Positions 1-20,069 of a stretch of DNA of 24,725 bases are shown piece after piece; the stretch's first letter is position 1; each line of letters begins with the position of its first letter. The notes below the pieces were generated by a model. That model was not told the DNA's origin, made no database searches, and worked only from the letters and a program-made list of their open reading frames with translations. Both the position numbers and the translations under genes were made by a program. Source of the DNA: a virus. The stretch is from IMG/VR virus record IMGVR_UViG_3300009285_003054, positions 1-24,725 of that record, one strand, 5' to 3'.

Positions 1-204
1 ATTCCTGACTTGATTCCTGACTTGATTCCTGACTTGATCCCCGACTTGATTCCTGACTTGATTCCTGACTTGATCCCAGACTTGATCCCAGACTTGATCC
101 ACGACTTGATCCCCGACTTGATCTCCGACTTGATTCCTGACTTGATCCCCGACTTGATCTCCGACTTGATTCCTGACTTGATTCCCGACTTGATCCCTGA
201 CTTG
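1..204 (-). repeat. Coding 12-bp tandem repeat, at least 17 units (minus strand CAAGTCxxx(A/G)AT)
   Basis: GACTTG recurs every 12 nt from position 1 to 204. Variation is limited to the third codon (R/G/W/V) and the first base of the fourth codon (N/D). Confidence 0.97.
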
Positions 205-420
205 AACCAAGTATACACTGCCTAAACAGCCGGCAAACGGACTGTTTAGGTGGATCCATATCGCTGGTGGCTCAACTCCCGCGCACCGATACGCGCGGGA
301 GATGGCATCTCGACATCGACTGTCGATTGGCTCTGTGGATAGGCCAATGTCCAACCATTTTTGCCTAAAAGTTGGAAGAAGTGCTTCTTGTTCGGGTGTC
401 AAATGTTCAATCTTGGACAT
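1..420 (-). CDS. DUF6745-like phage protein with QV(R/G/W)(N/D) tetrapeptide repeats; 3' end lies outside the window; absent from the ORF track
   Basis: My translation from ATG at 420 is MSKIEHLTPEQEALLPTFRQKWLDIGLSTEPIDSRCRDAISRAYRCAGVEPPAIWIHLNSPFAGCLGSVYLV followed by 17 QVxN/D units, open to position 1. The LTPEQ...KW..IGLSTEP...SP N-terminus plus QVWD repeats is typical of DUF6745-associated proteins. The start overlaps the upstream gene's stop by 14 nt. Confidence 0.85.
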   Translation of the reverse strand, partial: MSKIEHLTPEQEALLPTFRQKWLDIGLSTEPIDSRCRDAISRAYRCAGVEPPAIWIHLNSPFAGCLGSVYLVQVRDQVGNQVRNQVGDQVGDQVRNQVGDQVGDQVVDQVWDQVWDQVRNQVRNQVGDQVRNQVRNQVRN

Positions 421-1484: not shown

Positions 1485-1631
1485 CTAGCGTTTTCCAATG
1501 TATCCGGTTATAGTGCTTTGACCGCACACCTTCAGGGGTTCAATTCTACCAAAATGATCAAACACGGTTTGATCATCGAAAATCACAGGGTTCTTAACGA
1601 CATACCTCTCCAAAGACTCAAACCCCTTCAT
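1485..1631 (-). CDS. Small hypothetical protein (48 aa, MKGFESLERY...)
   Basis: Strong SD GGAGGAG (about 1641-1647) upstream of ATG at 1631, downstream of a sigma70-like promoter. Confidence 0.6.
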   Translation of the reverse strand: MKGFESLERYVVKNPVIFDDQTVFDHFGRIEPLKVCGQSTITGYIGKR

Positions 1632-1734
1632 TGTAGTAGCCTCCTCCGTTTTTTTGTTTCTGACCACTTGAGCCAACTTTACAGAAATCTCACTTTACTG
1701 AACCGTTAAGTGAATATCTGCAAAGTACAAATAT

Positions 1735-1763
1735 GGTATATCTACTTGCTGCTACAATGTCAA
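1735..1763 (-). promoter_or_regulatory. Sigma70-like promoter for the leftward operon
   Basis: TTGACA (1763-1758), 17-nt spacer, TATACC (1740-1735), with a T-rich UP-like tract upstream. The -10 element is imperfect. Confidence 0.6.
1750..1758 (+). promoter_or_regulatory. Extended -10 element, candidate promoter for the large ncRNA
   Basis: TGcTACAAT at 1750-1758 with no good -35. Predicted transcription start near 1765. Confidence 0.35.
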
Positions 1764-1789
1764 CAAAAAAAGAAAACATAGCAAAATCA

Positions 1790-3540
1790 GTATGCTTCCC
1801 GGTACACACCAACAAGTCACTAATGCAGATAAAGCATGATGGGAGCCATCAATTTAGCAACTCCCCCACCGAACCAAACTTGTGAAAGGAAAAATCGGGA
1901 ACACCAAACGTGGGGTGTATTGGGTACGTTTTCCACCCCTTGTTCCACCCTCGAAGGTCCTGGAGTTAGGATCCCCGGGTGGAGGAAAGCGACCGGGTGT
2001 TTATGCAACATCCGACCAGCGAGCCCTAATTGTAATTATGTTGCCGCCTTGGCCGCTAGCGTGATCATGTTGGGTGACAATGCCCCGTGGTGTTGGTCCT
2101 TCTGATTTGCGCCTAGCGCCGAAATAGCGTGTCGAAGCCTACACCGTGATGTCCACACACTCAACCCTCTTCTCCACCTCTCCACCGCAAGGTGCAACCG
2201 GTGATAACATAGGGATAACAAGGTGTGCATCTGGATATTATAAGACCCGGGAAGAATGCCACTGGCAACCCTGCTTAACTCGCTTTCGAGTTCTGGGAAG
2301 TCCTCTCGCTGACCCTGGGCCAGGCCGCAAGCCCCAGGTTGGACCGTAATCGGAACACCAATCTATGCGGGTGGCGATGCTGTTTTCTCCGTAATAGGGA
2401 AACGCTTTTAATTACGTCCCTCTAATTACGAAACGGGAGTTTTTAAGGTACCTTCGAGCCTATCTCCTGTTAGGACGGGATGGCCAGTCCGACCGGTCTC
2501 GCAATAAACAAAAACGTCTGACCCCCCTTCTCGTGAGGATCCGTGAGGTGTCATTCAATAGTAACCCGGTAGGTGCTCTGATGACAAAGAGCTTCTGGTA
2601 ATCCGGGATAAAAACTGGAAAGGTTCTCGATTCTGTATTCTGCGGGTAGCTACCCCGGAGAGGAGCGGAGACGGACATATGGTAATCCGGACCTGGTTGT
2701 CACTGGGCACCCGACAAAGTCTAGCTAGTCTCCCTTAGAAAAGATACCGGCTACGGTCTCGTCTCGGCTGGAACTAATAGTCAAAACCGCCAGCCTTGTC
2801 ACGTAAGCCTATGCGTGATGAACGTGGTATATGTTCACGGGTGGTAAGAGTAGGAGTAGGGCACTACGAGGTGCTAACTTGATGTTGTATAACAGCATCT
2901 GCAACCTCGGAAGTAGCAGGGACGCCATAGGAGGGATCCCCGCCCGGTTATCGTAGCAGGATACAGCACAACCGCCGTCGAGAACGAAGAATGGCTTAGC
3001 GAGAGCACATGGGGCAGGTACATAGTCCCTCGGGGATCCGTGAGTACCCCAGAAATTCTACTACAGGGAAAACGGAGAAAGAGCGTGACAAACCCGGCTT
3101 AGACACCGCCTGACTTGACAGCAGGCATATGAGATTCCGGTGCCTTTGATAAGGCGAATACGAGGTAGACTTGCTACCAGAATAACTCGAACTAGTTGAT
3201 GGGGTTCGTAACCTAATAGCAAGAGAACCTTCGGGAATCTTCCGGGGAGCATAACTTTCCTTGGCAGGACCCCTAATGGCTACAGCGTTTAGGAGTAGAC
3301 ACACGTAGCCATACCGATACAGCACTCTCTGCAACCAGCAAAGACGGGCAACCTTCACATTCTAGTAAGCAACCCACCCATACCCTTCTCTGATAATCCC
3401 CTTACTCTCTGGGATCCGAGGAGAAGCAAAAGAAGAGTGGACATCCTACTAAGAAGGATAACGTAAAACCGTTACAGAGTGCTTTCTAGGGATCCAGAAA
3501 GGAAAGGGATGGTAAGGGCGGGTTTTGTCTTCCCGGGGAT
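1790..3540 (+). ncRNA. Large structured non-coding RNA with an RNase P RNA (rnpB)-like core at about 1914-3107
   Basis: No convincing ORF over about 1.9 kb in an otherwise gene-dense region. Ordered RNase P-like elements: P2 1927-1943/3063-3074, P3 1944-1950/1977-1983, GAGGAAAG 1982-1989, P4 1987-1997/3093-3100, P5 1998-2001/2965-2968 followed by CAA, P7 2010-2013/2959-2962, and ACAAACCCGGCTTA 3088-3101. Many additional hairpins and long-range complementarities. Confidence 0.7.
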
Positions 3541-3620
3541 AATAGAGAATCTAATAGGGGATTGACTACTTGTTTAGTATCTTCTGGATCTCTGGTAGGT
3601 ATCGACACCATTTAGTCTAC

Positions 3621-4181
3621 TCAAAGGCTGGGGGTCAACCAGCCTTTGCATTTCAACGTGTTCACCGCAATTCCAATCTGGCGGGGGGTGAATTGTTTCT
3701 TGTGCTTCCACATGCACACACGGGTGACTATCTCATCCAGGCTGTCACATGGTTCGTGCTGTGTGATCCAATGTACAGTCACTAGAAGCTCTAGCCCAAA
3801 GGCCGACTCAAAACCTGATATCAGATCTGCCACACGTTCTACCCGGGCCATCGTTTCTGGATGCTGCTGCAGGATGGCTGTGGCATCCTCTATGGCACCG
3901 GGTATTAGATTGATGTGCCCGTCAGGTGCATGCCCTGCATAGCCAGAGACCATGTGGTATTCGATCATATGCATGGCATGCCACAAATTCTTCGTGTTGG
4001 GACCAAGCAATACCTTGTTGAACTTCAGGCGGAGCGGCTCACCAGCTATTTGAAGAAAGTATAGCAACTTGTATACTTCGAGCATGGTCACGAATGGGTC
4101 GAGTAGACCTCTCAGGTATGTGTCCATCAATTTCACCAAGGCAGCTCGTCCAGGCGTCATGGTGGGAACGGACGGTGCCAT
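3621..4181 (-). CDS. Stand-alone DarG antitoxin C-terminal (DarT-binding) domain with no macrodomain
   Basis: MTPGRAAL..LM..YL.GLLDPFVT.LEV.KL.YF.Q.AGEPLRL, GFES.FGLELL.TVHW and KQF.PRQI..A...L..KGWL match the C-terminal half of macrodomain-type DarG as I recall it. It has its own SD (CAGGAG) and ATG at 4181. No darT is present in the window. Confidence 0.8.
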   Translation of the reverse strand: MAPSVPTMTPGRAALVKLMDTYLRGLLDPFVTMLEVYKLLYFLQIAGEPLRLKFNKVLLGPNTKNLWHAMHMIEYHMVSGYAGHAPDGHINLIPGAIEDATAILQQHPETMARVERVADLISGFESAFGLELLVTVHWITQHEPCDSLDEIVTRVCMWKHKKQFTPRQIGIAVNTLKCKGWLTPSL

Positions 4182-4279
4182 GTAAGAGGCTCCTGTATGG
4201 GTTTTCCTGCTATTGTACTTCTACTACTATACTTCTATCTTTAGAGGATTGGCTTCGGGGGATAGGGATTGAGAAGGAT

Positions 4280-4319
4280 CCTGAAATGGATTGGGTGAGC
4301 CTGAAATGTATTTGGTGAG
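4280..4319. repeat. Intergenic 20-bp tandem duplication
   Basis: CCTGAAATGGATTGGGTGAG (4280-4299) and CCTGAAATGTATTTGGTGAG (4300-4319), 18/20 identical. Confidence 0.85.
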
Positions 4320-4364
4320 AATGTACCTGGCAAGATGGGAGTGGGTTAGGGGGCGACTGTCTGT

Positions 4365-5969
4365 CTACTTGTGGAATTTGAAGACCAAGTTGGCGACCGC
4401 GTCCCGGAGTGCGTCGCCTGCCTCTTTCCAACCTTCACTGTCCACGTACCAGCAGTTGTCGTCTTCACTGTCAAACAAGAAACCTGTGTTCTTCATGACC
4501 TTGCTGGTGAGCAGGGGGTTGAGCTCGGTAAGCTTCTTGCCACCATCAAGGCAGTAGAACACATCGGTGTCTACCTTCTTTTTGGTGTACCCCAGTACCA
4601 CCGGGGCATCCTCATCATCCCCGGAACCAGCACACTCATCCTCATCAGCATCCTCACACTCATCATCCCCGGAACCAGCACACTCATCCTCTTCCGCGTC
4701 ATCGTCATCCTCTTCGGTGGTGGGATCTTCCACCTTGGGTTGCTGCTTGCCAGCGCCCTTGGGCTTGCTGTCAGCCTTGGCTTCCGGAACGTCTACCATC
4801 TTGAGCTGCCCCCAACCAGCCGTCGCTAGCTGATTGTTGAGCTTTAACCAGGCGGTATCCCCGGTGGCTCCTTCGACCAACAGGCTGGTGGTATAGGCCA
4901 GCATCTCAGAAACTTTCCGGAATCCCCACTTGAGATCAGTGTTGATGTCTTTGAACGTCGCCGCCCCATCCTTGGCCCCGGCGTCAACCGCATCCTGCAT
5001 GAGCTTCTTCACTGCCTTGATGGCACTCTTCTGTGCCTTGCTCAGCTCAGCCACTGCCGGGGGGGCCGTCTCCTTCTTGGCCTTGGGCTCCGTCGGGTCC
5101 GGGGTGGTCTCTGCCTGGCCAGCCATGAGATTGACCAGCACTACCTCACACAGCAGTGCCGCGAGGTAGTAGTGCTTGTCCCGGAGCATACCGATGGTCT
5201 TGGACAACCCATCGGCGGTTGGGTTGATCAACCCTTTAAGCAGCAGGTACCCATCCTTCGGGGATCCCACACCCAGCCCCATGGTGGTGCACGCAGTCAT
5301 GATACCCTTCTTGTCCTTGTCCTTGCACAGCGCCTGGATGTGCTCCAGGGTGTAAGCGTCGGCGGGCACTTCGGGGAGCCCATTGGTGTCGGCGTCTTCC
5401 TCCAGCCCATCTTCAATGAGCTTGGCATCCTTAATGACAAAGCATATTTGTCCCACATCTGTTCCCTTCGGGATGACAATCCCTAGCCTCTTGGCCTCCT
5501 GCAGCATTTCCTTTATTTCAGTTGCTGTGGGCTTCTTGGCAGCTGTCTTACTCATGGTCCATTCTCCTTGCTGTTGTTGTGCTTGGCGTTCTGTTGTTGC
5601 ACCCTCGCCCTGGGCTTTACGCTCACCTGCACCTACCATTGTACCCGATTTGTTTCCGTTTGTCAAGCGATTTTTTTCAGCCGCAATGATTTTCTCGGCT
5701 TCCATCACGTCATCTGCTGGGAAGATACATGCATAAGCACACGTCCACTTTGATCCTACCTGACTACTTCTACCAGTACCTCTTTCCTCTACAGTTTCCA
5801 CTTTAACCGACTTACCATTGAATTTCAAGACCTTGGCCAATGTCCTTTCTCCATTGGGCATTCCGAAGAGAACTCGGTCATCTACCCGCACGTGCTGGGT
5901 TACACAGTGAAATGCATGTTCTGCTGCTTCATGTTGTACGGTTGCTTTGCAGAATGGACATTTGTACAT
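4365..5969 (-). CDS. Hypothetical multidomain protein: N-terminal CPFC...H..H zinc-finger-like motif, SH3/KOW-like beta domain, Lys/Ala-rich middle and acidic linker
   Basis: 534-aa ORF with SD AAGGAG at 5976-5981 and a consensus-like promoter upstream. A second AAGGAG plus in-frame ATG occurs at 5555. Confidence 0.85.
   Translation of the reverse strand: MYKCPFCKATVQHEAAEHAFHCVTQHVRVDDRVLFGMPNGERTLAKVLKFNGKSVKVETVEERGTGRSSQVGSKWTCAYACIFPADDVMEAEKIIAAEKNRLTNGNKSGTMVGAGERKAQGEGATTERQAQQQQGEWTMSKTAAKKPTATEIKEMLQEAKRLGIVIPKGTDVGQICFVIKDAKLIEDGLEEDADTNGLPEVPADAYTLEHIQALCKDKDKKGIMTACTTMGLGVGSPKDGYLLLKGLINPTADGLSKTIGMLRDKHYYLAALLCEVVLVNLMAGQAETTPDPTEPKAKKETAPPAVAELSKAQKSAIKAVKKLMQDAVDAGAKDGAATFKDINTDLKWGFRKVSEMLAYTTSLLVEGATGDTAWLKLNNQLATAGWGQLKMVDVPEAKADSKPKGAGKQQPKVEDPTTEEDDDDAEEDECAGSGDDECEDADEDECAGSGDDEDAPVVLGYTKKKVDTDVFYCLDGGKKLTELNPLLTSKVMKNTGFLFDSEDDNCWYVDSEGWKEAGDALRDAVANLVFKFHK
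4611..4691 (-). repeat. 33-bp direct repeat with 48-bp period, encoding EDECAGSGDDE twice
   Basis: CTCATCATCCCCGGAACCAGCACACTCATCCTC at 4611-4643 and 4659-4691. Confidence 0.9.
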
Positions 5970-5981
5970 TGCATGCTCCTT

Positions 5982-6003
5982 TGTTACATGGATGTTACAT
6001 GGA
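5982..6003. promoter_or_regulatory. Perfect 11-bp tandem repeat between promoter and RBS, a candidate operator
   Basis: TGTTACATGGA at 5982-5992 and 5993-6003, abutting the SD at 5976-5981. Confidence 0.45.
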
Positions 6004-6034
6004 ATCGTTTTCGGGGTTGCATTATGTGGGATAG

Positions 6035-11666: not shown

Positions 11667-13070
11667 CTACTCAATATCCTTGGTGAACTCTTTGTATTGT
11701 TCAAATGCCCACCCTGTGGCCATCTGTTGTCTGCAAATGTTGTGCAGGTCTATTAGATATGTTCCGGGGTCATGTGCCTCTTCGTAAACTAGTCTTCGGA
11801 ATTCCACCCATGACATGCTCACTCCGTAGAATTTCTTGGCCTTTTTGTAGACTATTTCTTTTGTATCCCCCACAACAGTCGGAACCTGAACATTAAGGGT
11901 AACCCTTTCTCGACCAACCCATTCTGCCTGTCCAGTCATGCAGAGGAATTGAAACACATCATACGCTCGATCCACCCCCGAGCCACCACCACCGCTCTCT
12001 TTGAAGCAGATTCGACTCCATGTCTGGTCAGTGGCTGATCCTCGTCTTCGATTTTTCTTGAATGCGTGAGCAGCGTATACAAAAAAATCCTTCCCACTGA
12101 GACGCCAAGACTGCTCTATCCGCCTCCCTTTGGCTTTTACTGCCGGTTGTGGCATGCCTGATGAACGCGCAGACATCCATTCGATGGTATCCGAGTGGTG
12201 ATGGAGTGCCGATCCCCCCGTCATGTACTCTGGAGATCCAAAGACCACCCCGGGTTTTACTTTGATATGGTTGGTGAAGAAAAGCACACCACCCTTCCGT
12301 TTAAGCAGTGATCTTACTACATGAAACCCGGTACCAAACATCCGGGCTTGAGCAGCCATCGGGTTGCTGTCGGGGTTATCAGCTAATGATTTAGGGGTAA
12401 GATTGGCTGCGCTATCACAGAAAAACGCAACCTGTGGTGGGCCGGATGTATAATCCGGTAAGGTTTTCAGTACCCATGCCATGAAGCGGAACCAGTCGTC
12501 ACCCGATGGAAAATCCACAAGTTTCAAACAGGGATGGGTCCAGGATTGATTTCTCGCGTCCCATTCCAGTTCTACACCCCACTTTCGGATAGCTACTGCG
12601 CCATATGTCCAGTCTATGGCTGTCTCTGCGTCGAAAACATAGGTTACGATCCTCCTAGCAAGACAGTCACCCATAGACTCAAAGTAATCGGTTGTCTTCC
12701 CTGCGTGGGGATGCCCCGCTTTTGTATGCACCTTCCCTGGTGGGATCCCACCCCCCAGTGCTAAATCAGCCACTAAACATCCGGATGTGACGCATACGGA
12801 TGCGGTCGATACCGTGGCGTCTTCCCGCCTGCCACTGGTTTTGTCCAGAATAGTTAATAGGGTTTTATCCGGTGTCTGCACCTCAGTCGGGGTGTACTGA
12901 TCACATGCGGGTGTCGAGTTGGCTACCCCCCTCATCAATCGACACCCTAACCGTGGGTTACCTAGCTCAAAACATGGTGCGTCAATCCATTTACAGTAAA
13001 TGCAACTTTTTTTCGACTTGTGGGGTTTTCTACCATGGGGAAGGGGGCCTGGCTGATGTGGCTTTAACAT
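11667..13070 (-). CDS. recA: RecA/UvsX-like recombinase with a Cys-rich N-terminal extension
   Basis: SG...DLALGGGIP.G, Walker A GHPHAGKTT, FDAE.AID, Walker B FFCDS, AAQARM and FTNH....GVVFGSPE..TGG.AL. Start placed at ATG 13070, which overlaps the upstream stop; the ORF track extends to 13160. Confidence 0.9.
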   Translation of the reverse strand: MLKPHQPGPLPHGRKPHKSKKSCIYCKWIDAPCFELGNPRLGCRLMRGVANSTPACDQYTPTEVQTPDKTLLTILDKTSGRREDATVSTASVCVTSGCLVADLALGGGIPPGKVHTKAGHPHAGKTTDYFESMGDCLARRIVTYVFDAETAIDWTYGAVAIRKWGVELEWDARNQSWTHPCLKLVDFPSGDDWFRFMAWVLKTLPDYTSGPPQVAFFCDSAANLTPKSLADNPDSNPMAAQARMFGTGFHVVRSLLKRKGGVLFFTNHIKVKPGVVFGSPEYMTGGSALHHHSDTIEWMSARSSGMPQPAVKAKGRRIEQSWRLSGKDFFVYAAHAFKKNRRRGSATDQTWSRICFKESGGGGSGVDRAYDVFQFLCMTGQAEWVGRERVTLNVQVPTVVGDTKEIVYKKAKKFYGVSMSWVEFRRLVYEEAHDPGTYLIDLHNICRQQMATGWAFEQYKEFTKDIE

Positions 13071-14800
13071 TGTTCTACTCGCTTTCGACATACTGCGCAG
13101 AACAGATACCTTCCCGTTCCACACAGACCGTAAATGGTTGCCGAACCACATTGGGGACACTGGTGCCCGGATGGGGCACTGTGAAATGACGTCAATTCAC
13201 CATCTGCTGTAAAATCAATCCCGGAAATAGACATACACCCGGGCTCTGGGCACTGCAGTACCGGAGTAGGTTTGTATATCAGTCGCATGGGAACCCTCAT
13301 GTGTACTCGAAGATTGTCACATGTGGGTACTTCGGATCCGAAGACCTGATTAATACTGCACCATTCCGTGGTTACTGCAGTCGTCATGCAGTTGCGCCAA
13401 AACAGTCGAAGCACCTTTTCCGGAGAGGTCTTTCCTTCGGCTACGCCATGCAGCATGGCTTCTATTTTGGGTATCATACGTGGGGATGCAGCCGAAGAGA
13501 AGACTCTATTGAGTACCCGCCCTACCAATTCCCCTGTCTGTGATAACCGAAGGGATGAGTCTTCGGTAGTGATGAATCCCGCATCAATTGCCCGTTGCAG
13601 ATTTCGGACAAAGTGCCCGATGTCATTTACTCCAATATCTCTAAGAGTCTTGAGTAGGCTACCTACAGTGTAGGGTGTCTTTTGTGGATCGTGAATCTCT
13701 ACATGTGAGGCGGTAACCAGAGTTTTCTCTGCATCCAACAAATATTGATGCATCTCATCCCAAGAACCCCCACTCTTCGATGTATGTGTCAAAAGTATTT
13801 GTTTCCGATGAATAGAGTGACACCACCGAATTCGTTGACTACTATATGTAGGGTTGGACGACTCCCCCCAACAACGGATGGCTAATTTGCCTACATTCCC
13901 TCTACTCACTTTTCGGATGGCTTCCGGTGCCATTCGCACACAGAGATCCCCATCTCCCTCCGGAAATTCAATGTGCCCCTGTAGATATATGTCTAGCATC
14001 TCCGCATAGGCTGACCCTGGGGAACTATTGCTATGTACCTCTCGCATTACATTGATCATCGAGAATGGGGATTTTTCCCGCATGACAGTTGGCTCATCAT
14101 CTATTGAGACCCGATATTTATTGGTCTCTAGTAGGTGAGCCACCATCTTCGCTCTAATCCGGGTCATCTGCCCAGAGTAGATTGTTTCCCCGGACTCTAG
14201 TGTCACACCCACTCGCCATACCTTTGCCTCGGGGTCTTTACATGTACTCCTAATGTGCTGTTCTTTTTCTGCGAGGATCTGGAGAATCACTCCAATAGTT
14301 CGATTTATGGGGAGATCTTCTGGAGCATGCATGATCTCATGGAGTACAGCTCGACCCTTAACTGCGATCATGCGATCCATAGCTACTCTTACCCAATATG
14401 CCTGTGCCACGGGGAGATCTACTTGTTTGGCGGATGCTATCGCCTTATGCAATCCCCTAACGGTCAAACGCATCAGGCGCACCCGCTTAGCTAGGGGCAA
14501 AGTTTCCTGCATAATAGATGCAAAAAACTCTCCTCGTGGGGTAGGTTCAGTAGCCAAATATACCCGATACTCGCTCATCTTCTGGAGCTGGCGTACTAGC
14601 TCGTGGTCAACTTCCCAGCGGGGGCGCATGGTCTTGATACAGATACCCAACTCGGGATAATCTGGCCAGGCCACTATGTTCGGATCGATGTGAGTTACTC
14701 TCCAGTGTGGAAGTAGTCTGCGGACAACACGGGCGACCCTTTCATCGTCTGTTACAAGAATTTTTTGGCCATGACGACTGTGCTTTGTCTGCTTGGGCAT
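13064..14800 (-). CDS. topA: Degenerate type IA DNA topoisomerase-like protein lacking catalytic residues, with C-terminal zinc ribbons
   Basis: Collinear remnants of TopA motifs: YLATEPTPRGE (vs LATDPDREGE), DRMI, NRT (vs GRVQ), PF, YLQGHIEFPEGD (vs YE.G.ITYPRTD), EAIR, PYT.GSL, TG.LV and E..L..VAEG, plus C-terminal CPEPGC, CPQC and CAVC. Confidence 0.8.
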   Translation of the reverse strand: MPKQTKHSRHGQKILVTDDERVARVVRRLLPHWRVTHIDPNIVAWPDYPELGICIKTMRPRWEVDHELVRQLQKMSEYRVYLATEPTPRGEFFASIMQETLPLAKRVRLMRLTVRGLHKAIASAKQVDLPVAQAYWVRVAMDRMIAVKGRAVLHEIMHAPEDLPINRTIGVILQILAEKEQHIRSTCKDPEAKVWRVGVTLESGETIYSGQMTRIRAKMVAHLLETNKYRVSIDDEPTVMREKSPFSMINVMREVHSNSSPGSAYAEMLDIYLQGHIEFPEGDGDLCVRMAPEAIRKVSRGNVGKLAIRCWGESSNPTYSSQRIRWCHSIHRKQILLTHTSKSGGSWDEMHQYLLDAEKTLVTASHVEIHDPQKTPYTVGSLLKTLRDIGVNDIGHFVRNLQRAIDAGFITTEDSSLRLSQTGELVGRVLNRVFSSAASPRMIPKIEAMLHGVAEGKTSPEKVLRLFWRNCMTTAVTTEWCSINQVFGSEVPTCDNLRVHMRVPMRLIYKPTPVLQCPEPGCMSISGIDFTADGELTSFHSAPSGHQCPQCGSATIYGLCGTGRYLFCAVCRKRVEQC

Positions 14801-18981: not shown

Positions 18982-19214
18982 GAGGTTGGATCGACATTAC
19001 ACAGAGGTTTTTAGGTAACCCGAACGCCCCACCCTTTGTGATGCAGGTAATCCGCCTAAGTAACTCCCCTCCCGTATACTCCTGCAAATGGGGATCCCGG
19101 TGCACATTACATGTTGCTCCGTCCACCAGTCGTCGCGTCCTACCCTGTTGTAAGTGGATAATGTTATCGAGTATTTCATCTCTCCCACAATGGGTGGGTT
19201 GCAAACTTCTTTAG
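18978..19214 (+). CDS. Small Cys-containing hypothetical protein
   Basis: ATGA overlap with the preceding + strand gene; ends convergently within the end of the methyltransferase gene. Confidence 0.45.
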   Translation: MRGWIDITQRFLGNPNAPPFVMQVIRLSNSPPVYSCKWGSRCTLHVAPSTSRRVLPCCKWIMLSSISSLPQWVGCKLL

Positions 19215-20069
19215 AGCTACACCACGGGCTACATCCACCCAAGGGACCCCTATTTTGTCGCTAAACTTGTCTCCGCCTAAGAAGTTTCTCTCTAGCCCAA
19301 TGGCCGCTATCATTGTGGTTCCCGATCCAAGGAAAGGATCGCACACACTACCACCGGGTGGACAAAAGCATTTGATTGCGTCTATGGCGAGTTGGGTACA
19401 AAATCTTGCGGGGTGCCCAACGGCTTCTAGGTAAGGATCATCGTGATTAAACCCAACCGTGTATGCCCACACGGTACCCCGATTGGCTAATCCCAATGAC
19501 TTACCCGACGCTTTTCTTTTCTTACACATCAGACCGTCTCTGCCACGGTTTGATTTCCAGCCGTAAGTACCGTGGCTAGCTGCTTGTGCTACCGCTAGTT
19601 TGTCTATGTACGGATTCCCACCTAACTTCTCAAACCAAAAGAGGTGCTCAAAGTCGTTGCGAAACCTACCAGAGAATGCACCTACTGCACCCGTGCGTTG
19701 GTAGATCATTCTATCCGGGACTCGCAGGCCAACTCGCTCAGCCCAATCGATTCTAACCTTATCTATCACCAAACTTCTCTCTGTTCCAAACCCTTTTCTG
19801 TATTTCCGAATAGGGGAGTCTATTACCATCAGGCACGTACCTCCGGGTTTGAGTCCACGAAGGATATAATCCCCCAACGTCTGATAATCCCGAAGTCCCC
19901 ATTTTACGTTGGCCCCGTAGTCCCTCGCGTCCATGTATGGTGGCGATGTCATGATTAAATCTACTCCACCGATGGACTCTGCTATTTTAAGTGTCTTTTG
20001 GAAGGATGCTTTGTATAATCCGATAATATATCTATCCCACCAAGCCATTGTTTCACCTTTGACAATCAT
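19176..20069 (-). CDS. Beta-class amino DNA methyltransferase (N6_N4_Mtase family), probably m4C
   Basis: Motif IV TSPPY lies N-terminal to HPARF and motif I DPFLGSGTT. No cognate endonuclease is seen in the window. Confidence 0.92.
   Translation of the reverse strand: MIVKGETMAWWDRYIIGLYKASFQKTLKIAESIGGVDLIMTSPPYMDARDYGANVKWGLRDYQTLGDYILRGLKPGGTCLMVIDSPIRKYRKGFGTERSLVIDKVRIDWAERVGLRVPDRMIYQRTGAVGAFSGRFRNDFEHLFWFEKLGGNPYIDKLAVAQAASHGTYGWKSNRGRDGLMCKKRKASGKSLGLANRGTVWAYTVGFNHDDPYLEAVGHPARFCTQLAIDAIKCFCPPGGSVCDPFLGSGTTMIAAIGLERNFLGGDKFSDKIGVPWVDVARGVALKKFATHPLWER

Follow-up and report, generated by a model that had tools for sequence, protein, structure and literature searches.

In RNase P RNA, the single bulged U in helix P4 binds a catalytic metal; a U52C change lowers activity ~12-fold and deletion of the U ~13-fold, and the U has been termed 'not irreplaceable' by the authors of that work (PMC3488217). 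We analysed a 24,725-nt stretch of viral DNA (hereafter the window; positions 1 to 24,725 of IMG/VR record IMGVR_UViG_3300009285_003054), which is the start of the record of a groundwater phage with a genome of ~177 kb. A gene-free region of the window (1710-3620, + strand), predicted to specify a large non-coding RNA, carries two short motifs that resemble the strands of P4 in bacterial type A RNase P RNA, with CGA in the place of the bulged U. A limited literature search found no paper on an RNase P-like RNA in a phage. We give a probability of roughly 40% to the reading in which this core, with its likeness to RNase P, descends from RNase P RNA as a relic that is decaying or has been exapted, rather than being a working canonical active site. 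Coordinates are in window numbering unless the genome is stated.

The first motif consists of GAGGAAAG (1982-1989), CGA (1990-1992), and CCGGG (1993-1997) on the + strand, and resembles conserved region I (CR-I) together with a proposed 5' strand of P4. The second, ACAAACCCGGCUUA, lies 1.1 kb downstream on the same strand (3088-3101), reads as ACAAA-CCCGG-CUU-A, and resembles conserved region V (CR-V) with a proposed 3' strand of P4. The two are complementary through AAG/CUU and CCGGG/CCCGG (3 + 5 bp), with CGA, or GAC in the other register, left as the bulge. Compared with the canonical letters, GAGGAAAG is exact but the single bulged U within P4 is replaced by CGA, and ACAAACCCGGCUUA fits the CR-V pattern (ACAGAA...GGCUUA) with one base absent. 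An earlier reading of the letters alone (the original prediction) had described CGA followed by CCGGG where a U was expected, and ACAAA in place of ACA(G/A)AA in CR-V, and both observations hold. It had also asked whether an assembly error could lie behind them. Logan contigs from four groundwater runs show 0 differences across 1750-3650 at a word depth of 11-32, and the RNA region of a separate ENA assembly (L020) is identical to the window; this identity in five assemblies excludes an assembly error for 1982-1997. As a single source study underlies all five, they represent one phage population re-assembled, and the agreement demonstrates reproducibility, not conservation.

Each motif occurs once in the 176.8-kb genome. 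Exact matches to the 17-mer number 14 in IMG/VR, and since all of them fall within unrelated protein-coding genes, the 17-mer alone is not diagnostic. Using the base composition of the genome and 250,000 windows, we estimate that ~526 CR-I-like sites would be expected by chance, compared to ~0.05 such sites with a CR-V-like site at most 2.5 kb downstream. The motif pair is thus non-random.

To examine the surrounding sequence we derived a profile from 92 type A RNase P RNAs of bacteria, collected by their canonical CR-I, and also split it into 11 sub-profiles that were each searched genome-wide. The top match of the whole profile in the genome is the CR-V site (E 1.8, weak), and the genome-wide best match of the CR-V sub-profile is at 3091-3101 (E 0.29, also weak). 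A P9/P10-like 24-mer at 2733-2756 (+) is the best genome match of its own sub-profile (E 0.63), with no covariance-model match on 2700-2900. These two of the 11 sub-profiles peak inside the 1.26-kb core, and their matches lie on the correct strand in the same order as in RNase P. For the CR-I sub-profile, the 1982-1997 site comes only 23rd in the genome, owing to the 3-nt insertion. A P3-like hairpin at 1944-1983 (+), in which UCCACCC/GGGUGGA encloses GGUCCUG...UAGGAUC (-22.2 kcal/mol, z -2.26), abuts GAGGAAAG, as P3 does in RNase P.

Two pairings can be drawn at the place of P2, both using the + strand segment ACAGGGAAAACG (3063-3074) as the proposed 3' strand. The outer one (8 bp) joins CGUUUUCC (1927-1934, +) to GGAAAACG (3067-3074), and the inner one (6 bp), a long-range helix that we label LR1, joins CCUUGU (1938-1943, +) to its complement ACAGGG (3063-3068). 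Positional counterparts of LR1 can be drawn in both relatives described below (UCGCG/CGCGA in L143 and UCGCAG/CUGUGA in L150), where we estimate that ~0.1 such triples would arise by chance, which is suggestive only.

Few relatives of this locus could be recovered. A blastn search of the region against GenBank phages returned no match, and searches with the neighbouring 534-, 407-, 282-, 186-, 702-, and 178-aa proteins returned, apart from the 534-aa search, nothing beyond clamp loaders that are distantly related and lack the RNA, DarG-like proteins from bacteria, and reassemblies of this phage, such that by these sequence comparisons the phage is all but an orphan. When the 534-aa protein was searched exhaustively, two homologues with 36-37% identity emerged, one of them on a 7.4-kb contig (L143; sample SRR14610177), and a second contig (L150; JGI 3300017960-series) was added by an alignment-based scan. 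Downstream of the 534-aa homologue and on the opposite strand, L143 has a 1.5-kb gene-free gap (region 3951-5480) and L150 a gap of ~1.5 kb, poor in open reading frames (ORFs), that runs to the contig end (region 4361-6020). The genes on the far side of the L143 gap match the genome end that adjoins the window start in a circular map, and the synteny is therefore two-sided. The sole block of the window RNA significantly similar to L143 and L150 is an 85-nt segment at 2962-3047 (+; nhmmer E 2.8e-5; blastn 25-mer with 92% identity). Patterns derived from the conserved block gave no matches, or chance matches only, in viral and metagenome contigs. The idea that L143 represents an 'insert-less' version of the RNA, taken from a match to CCGGGUGGAG, was rejected, as the true counterpart of that L143 segment is 2974-2995 of the window.

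MAFFT failed to align the three RNAs in register, and we therefore read helices from anchored positions. This gave a two-helix element at 3029-3083 (+), in which an outer helix (CUC 3029-3031/GAG 3081-3083) and an inner helix (UCCGU 3037-3041/ACGGA 3072-3076) flank an internal loop of GGGGA/GAAAG. The inner helix is placed directly after the invariant GGGGA and directly before the invariant GAAAG, and has five Watson-Crick pairs in all three members (UCCGU/ACGGA in the window, GUCAC/GUGAC in L143, CCUUC/GAAGG in L150), a three-way compensatory pattern whose probability of arising by chance at fixed positions in three sequences we put, as a rough estimate, at <1e-6. The outer helix varies from CUC/GAG in the window to CCCUC/GAGGG in L143 and CUGU/GCAG in L150. 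The invariant GGGG (3032-3035) may pair with the invariant loop CCCC (3047-3050) as a pseudoknot, and the L143/L150 consensus contains G-U pairs that speak for the strand under analysis. A second module at 2541-2623 (+), composed of CCGURAGG, a variable hairpin, and CUGGARGG, is common to the three by eye but not significant by nhmmer; its flanks are conserved and its closing stem is different in all three (CCCGG/CCGGG in the window, GGUCCUUCGG/CCGAAGGCC in L150). On the L143/L150 pair, RNAalifold predicted another eight helices, each with two to four compensatory pairs. Given the covarying helix, the possible pseudoknot, the second module, and the alifold helices together, the locus is best read as encoding a member of a structured RNA family, a new and very rare one of large phage RNAs that has three known members. 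The RNA is probably at least 1.2 kb and likely ~1.9 kb long, and read from the + strand. Regarding short motifs, CCUUCU is ~12-fold enriched on the RNA strand of the three members (3, 2, and 4 copies in the window, L143, and L150, versus 0.8 expected in total), and an enrichment of CGACC or GACCAG was not borne out.

How the RNase P-like motifs came to reside in this RNA is a separate question. Descent from RNase P RNA is favoured by the improbable motif pair, by the order of the faint profile matches, and by the presence of a transfer-messenger RNA (tmRNA) in the phage. The tmRNA gene lies at 65379-65792 of the genome (G000; L151 580-993) and matches RF00023 with 102.9 bits (E 1e-40), and ARAGORN gives ANNTKHYASEPARMVA as its tag. 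tmRNA is a substrate of RNase P. The phage thus encodes a genuine tmRNA, yet its 176.8 kb contain no tRNA gene. The 16-nt site lies near the 5' part of the predicted large structured non-coding RNA. Under descent from RNase P, the segments that close the ~1.1-kb central domain of this RNA would retain an RNase P-like P2/P3/P4 layout in the window, with the single catalytic U replaced by CGA, J2/4 shortened by one base, and CR-IV and the specificity-domain motifs lost. The element under selection today would be the covarying two-helix, possibly pseudoknotted block at 2962-3083.

The same model would place the CR-I strand in competition between P4 and a local stem, S1, in which it could be locked. 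The 3' strand of S1, GGAAAGCG-ACC (1984-1994, +), includes the C and G of CGA and can pair with GGU-A-CGUUUUCC (1922-1934); CGUUUUCC would therefore be shared between S1, where it pairs with GGAAAGCG (1984-1991), and the outer P2. The hairpin at 1920-1998 folds at -33.5 kcal/mol, with C1990 and G1991 of the 'bulge' paired to G1928 and C1927, and S1-type short stems are found at the start of the RNA in both relatives (CUUUAC/GUAAAG in L143, CUUUA/UAAAG in L150). When the 5' and 3' segments are folded as two strands, S1 persists alongside CCGGGU/ACCCGG and a P1-like GGUGU/ACACC, and the AAG/CUU half of P4 is lost. We regard this retention of S1, along with the missing CR-II, CR-III, and CR-IV and the lack of the motifs in the relatives, as signs of decay. 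The data show the sequence, that it is reproducible and improbable by chance, the RNA family, and the covarying helix, and from them we infer an RNase P ancestry, a loss of catalysis, and the competition of S1 with P4. Given the order-of-magnitude cost of changing or deleting the U, CGA in a true RNase P would predict impairment and not a known new chemistry; a 3-nt replacement of the U should impair catalysis and need not abolish it.

A considerable body of evidence weighs against such descent. At the Rfam gathering score no RNase P match was found over the window, and none of the RNase P models RF00010, RF00011, RF00373, RF00009, and RF02357 matched at E<=10 on 1500-3000, 2760-3140, 1890-2130, or 2700-2900. 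RF00010 had no match at E<=10 in the whole 176.8-kb genome, compared to matches in 11 of 14 control genomes. CR-II, CR-III, CR-IV, P5/J5-15, and P15 had no sub-profile match in the core; a string, GGGUGGUAAGAG, was noticed by eye when CR-II, CR-III, and CR-IV were checked. The similarity to RNase P is accordingly weak, being faint and collinear but without structural support in these searches, with most of the universal core missing. The three-way covarying helix (3072-3076) shares 3 nt (3072-3074) with the strand of the outer P2 (3067-3074), so that only the inner P2 (1938-1943/3063-3068) is compatible with it. The CR-V strand itself has alternative 8-bp partners, equal to or longer than the P4 pairing, in UUGUCACG (2796-2803)/CGUGACAA and GGUGUUUA (1996-2003)/UAGACACC. 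There is no covariation for P4, as L143 and L150 have neither of its strands: no CR-I-like or CR-V-like string, RNase P block match, or Rfam match is present in either relative, and the core is not conserved in these homologues. The P4 core should be the last feature lost in true descendants of RNase P, and its absence from L143 and L150 adds to the case. P4 as first drawn is, among these predicted helices, one of several possible pairings, without comparative support. Lastly, no tRNA genes and no RnpA gene were found in the phage genome, and folding energies and thermodynamic z-scores of the region are not unusual on either strand.

The foremost alternative is that the resemblance is coincidental and arose in an unrelated large phage RNA family, where GGAAAGCG would be simply the 3' strand of S1 and ACCCGG a junction sequence of the family, with neither a P4 nor a bulge; we consider this a serious contender with somewhat less than an even chance of being correct. 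The letters at the place of CR-V bear on it directly. Here the window reads GAGAAAGAG-CGUGACAAACCCGGCUUAGACACC, L143 reads GGAGGACCCGGAC (in a longer reading, GGAAAGAGG-GAGGACCCGGAC), and L150 reads GCGUAUACCGUC (in a longer reading, GUGAAAGCAG-CGCGUAUACCGUC); L143 therefore also has ACCCGG at this place, without the flanking RNase P letters. The S1 counterparts in both relatives and the uniformly negative covariance-model searches are consistent with coincidence, as is the lack of any equivalent in RNase P for the sole elements that are conserved and covary (2962-3083). Moreover, 8-bp complements are common in a 1.9-kb RNA, and dozens of helices of at least 7 bp were listed. What coincidence explains poorly is that the two motifs occur together, correctly ordered, oriented, and complementary, which is expected only ~0.05 times in all windows, and that they come with an adjacent P3-like hairpin and with the P9/10-like segment, where its sub-profile has its top match in the genome.

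A working, much enlarged RNase P ribozyme, in which the 3-nt bulge is tolerated, the periphery is expanded by ~1 kb, and the product matures the phage tmRNA or host tRNAs, is improbable in our view. The core motifs are present in order, the phage encodes a tmRNA, and the catalytic U is 'not irreplaceable' (PMC3488217), but CR-II, CR-III, CR-IV, and P15/L15 were not found, J2/4 is shortened, covariance-model signal is absent, the relatives do not have the core, and the phage has no tRNA genes to serve. Still less likely is the capture of host rnpB pieces, as recombination debris or an attachment-site-like copy of the gene ends, in a resident large RNA gene. The P4 letters are exactly those of a typical bacterial type A RNase P RNA while the intervening sequence is unrelated, and the same locus in the relatives has no P4 letters, both as capture would predict; yet two separate pieces 1.1 kb apart would be needed in the correct order and orientation, and none of the larger window ORFs is an integrase by Pfam. 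That the locus is not an RNA at all but a DNA-level element (a replication origin or regulatory region) or an assembly artefact is similarly remote: no RNA run holding the sequence was found among the public sequencing runs listed, the promoter/terminator scan was without clear signal and uninformative, and the folding z-scores are unremarkable, but a compensatory helix in all three members and strand-specific G-U pairs argue for RNA, and five assemblies identical letter for letter argue against an artefact.

The original prediction of an RNase P-like RNA with a remodelled P4 therefore survives in part. The motif pair is genuine, its order and complementarity match those of RNase P, and a P3-like hairpin directly precedes it, but there is no covariance-model match, no CR-II, CR-III, or CR-IV was found, the relatives have no counterpart of the motifs, the proposed P2 overlaps a covarying helix, and C1990 and G1991 of the bulge are paired in S1. 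Whether by descent from RNase P or otherwise, a 'remodelled active site' is not established under any reading. A more specific scenario, in which the phage lineage inherited an RNase P and made of it a giant (>1.2 kb) RNA whose altered catalytic pseudoknot serves as a switchable decoy aimed at the RNase P protein of the host or at its substrates, or performs an altered chemistry, for example on the phage tmRNA precursor, appears unlikely to us.

With code 11, no ORF in the region at 1710-3620 exceeds 121 codons, and reassigning any single stop codon yields none that is credible; a hidden gene using another genetic code was rejected, as no consistent ORF emerged with reassigned stops. The minus-strand genes of the window include those for an SbcC-like ATPase, a clamp loader, a phosphoesterase, a RecA-like protein, a sigma factor, a DNA methylase, an RNA ligase, QueD, and a radical SAM enzyme. 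The genome was assembled independently at sizes of 176.8, 177.2, and 177.3 kb, with start points that differ among L020, L021, and G000, and these differing start points at ~177 kb suggest that the genome is probably circular or circularly permuted, and complete; CheckV gives a completeness of 57%, despite the agreement of these assemblies.

Several further features of the window were observed. The protein that adjoins the RNA (186 aa, 3621-4181, - strand) shares ~59% identity with hundreds of proteins from bacteria; many of these are longer and carry a macro domain (PF01661), and close relatives in phages are lacking. Between assemblies, the acidic repeat in the 534-aa gene (4611-4703) differs by 48 bp (16 codons), giving 534 aa in the window and 550 aa in L020, and several assemblies break at this repeat. 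Window positions 1-210 and L020 19180-19766 give many offset blastn matches of ~200 bp with 88-93% identity, which shows that the ORF at the start of the window contains a tandem repeat of short period. Six copies of GGATCC are present in the 1.9-kb gene-free region (1969, 2537, 2934, 3034, 3412, and 3490) versus 0.5 expected, and 102 times genome-wide versus 43 expected, with none in the L143 and L150 RNAs; an N6/N4 DNA methylase gene is located at 19176-20069. A 578-aa ORF (13064-14800, - strand) has a weak match to the topoisomerase IA family (24.3 bits, below the cut-off).

If the core is indeed a relic, it would be a rare natural case of a universal ribozyme dismantled and reused by a virus, and would show which core features decay first while providing a natural test of how far the metal-binding bulge of P4 tolerates change. 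If the resemblance is coincidental, the locus would still represent an uncatalogued family of very large structured phage RNAs with a covariation-supported core, adjoining the replication and recombination genes of a phage with its own tmRNA. In either case, two short RNase P motifs are insufficient for calling an active site.

Compared to type A RNase P RNA (E. coli M1 RNA, rnpB; RF00010), the window RNA has GGAGGAAAG directly after a hairpin, CCGGG and CCCGGCUUA that can form P4, ACA.AA before the 3' strand, a P2-like pairing ahead of the hairpin, and a P9/10-like 24-mer in the right order. It differs in having 1.1 kb between the P4 strands instead of ~280 nt, CGA for the single metal-binding U, and a J2/4 that is one base short; it is also without CR-II, CR-III, CR-IV, P15/L15, or a covariance-model score, and its relatives are without the core. 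Rfam 15 models of GOLLD, ROOL, OLE, and other large RNAs had no match in the window, L143, or L150. Like GOLLD and ROOL (which are often phage-borne) and OLE RNA, the window encodes what appears to be a very large multi-helix RNA, here in a phage, with conserved islands between variable hairpins; unlike them, its family has only three known members, and its conserved core is a different two-helix, possibly pseudoknotted element.

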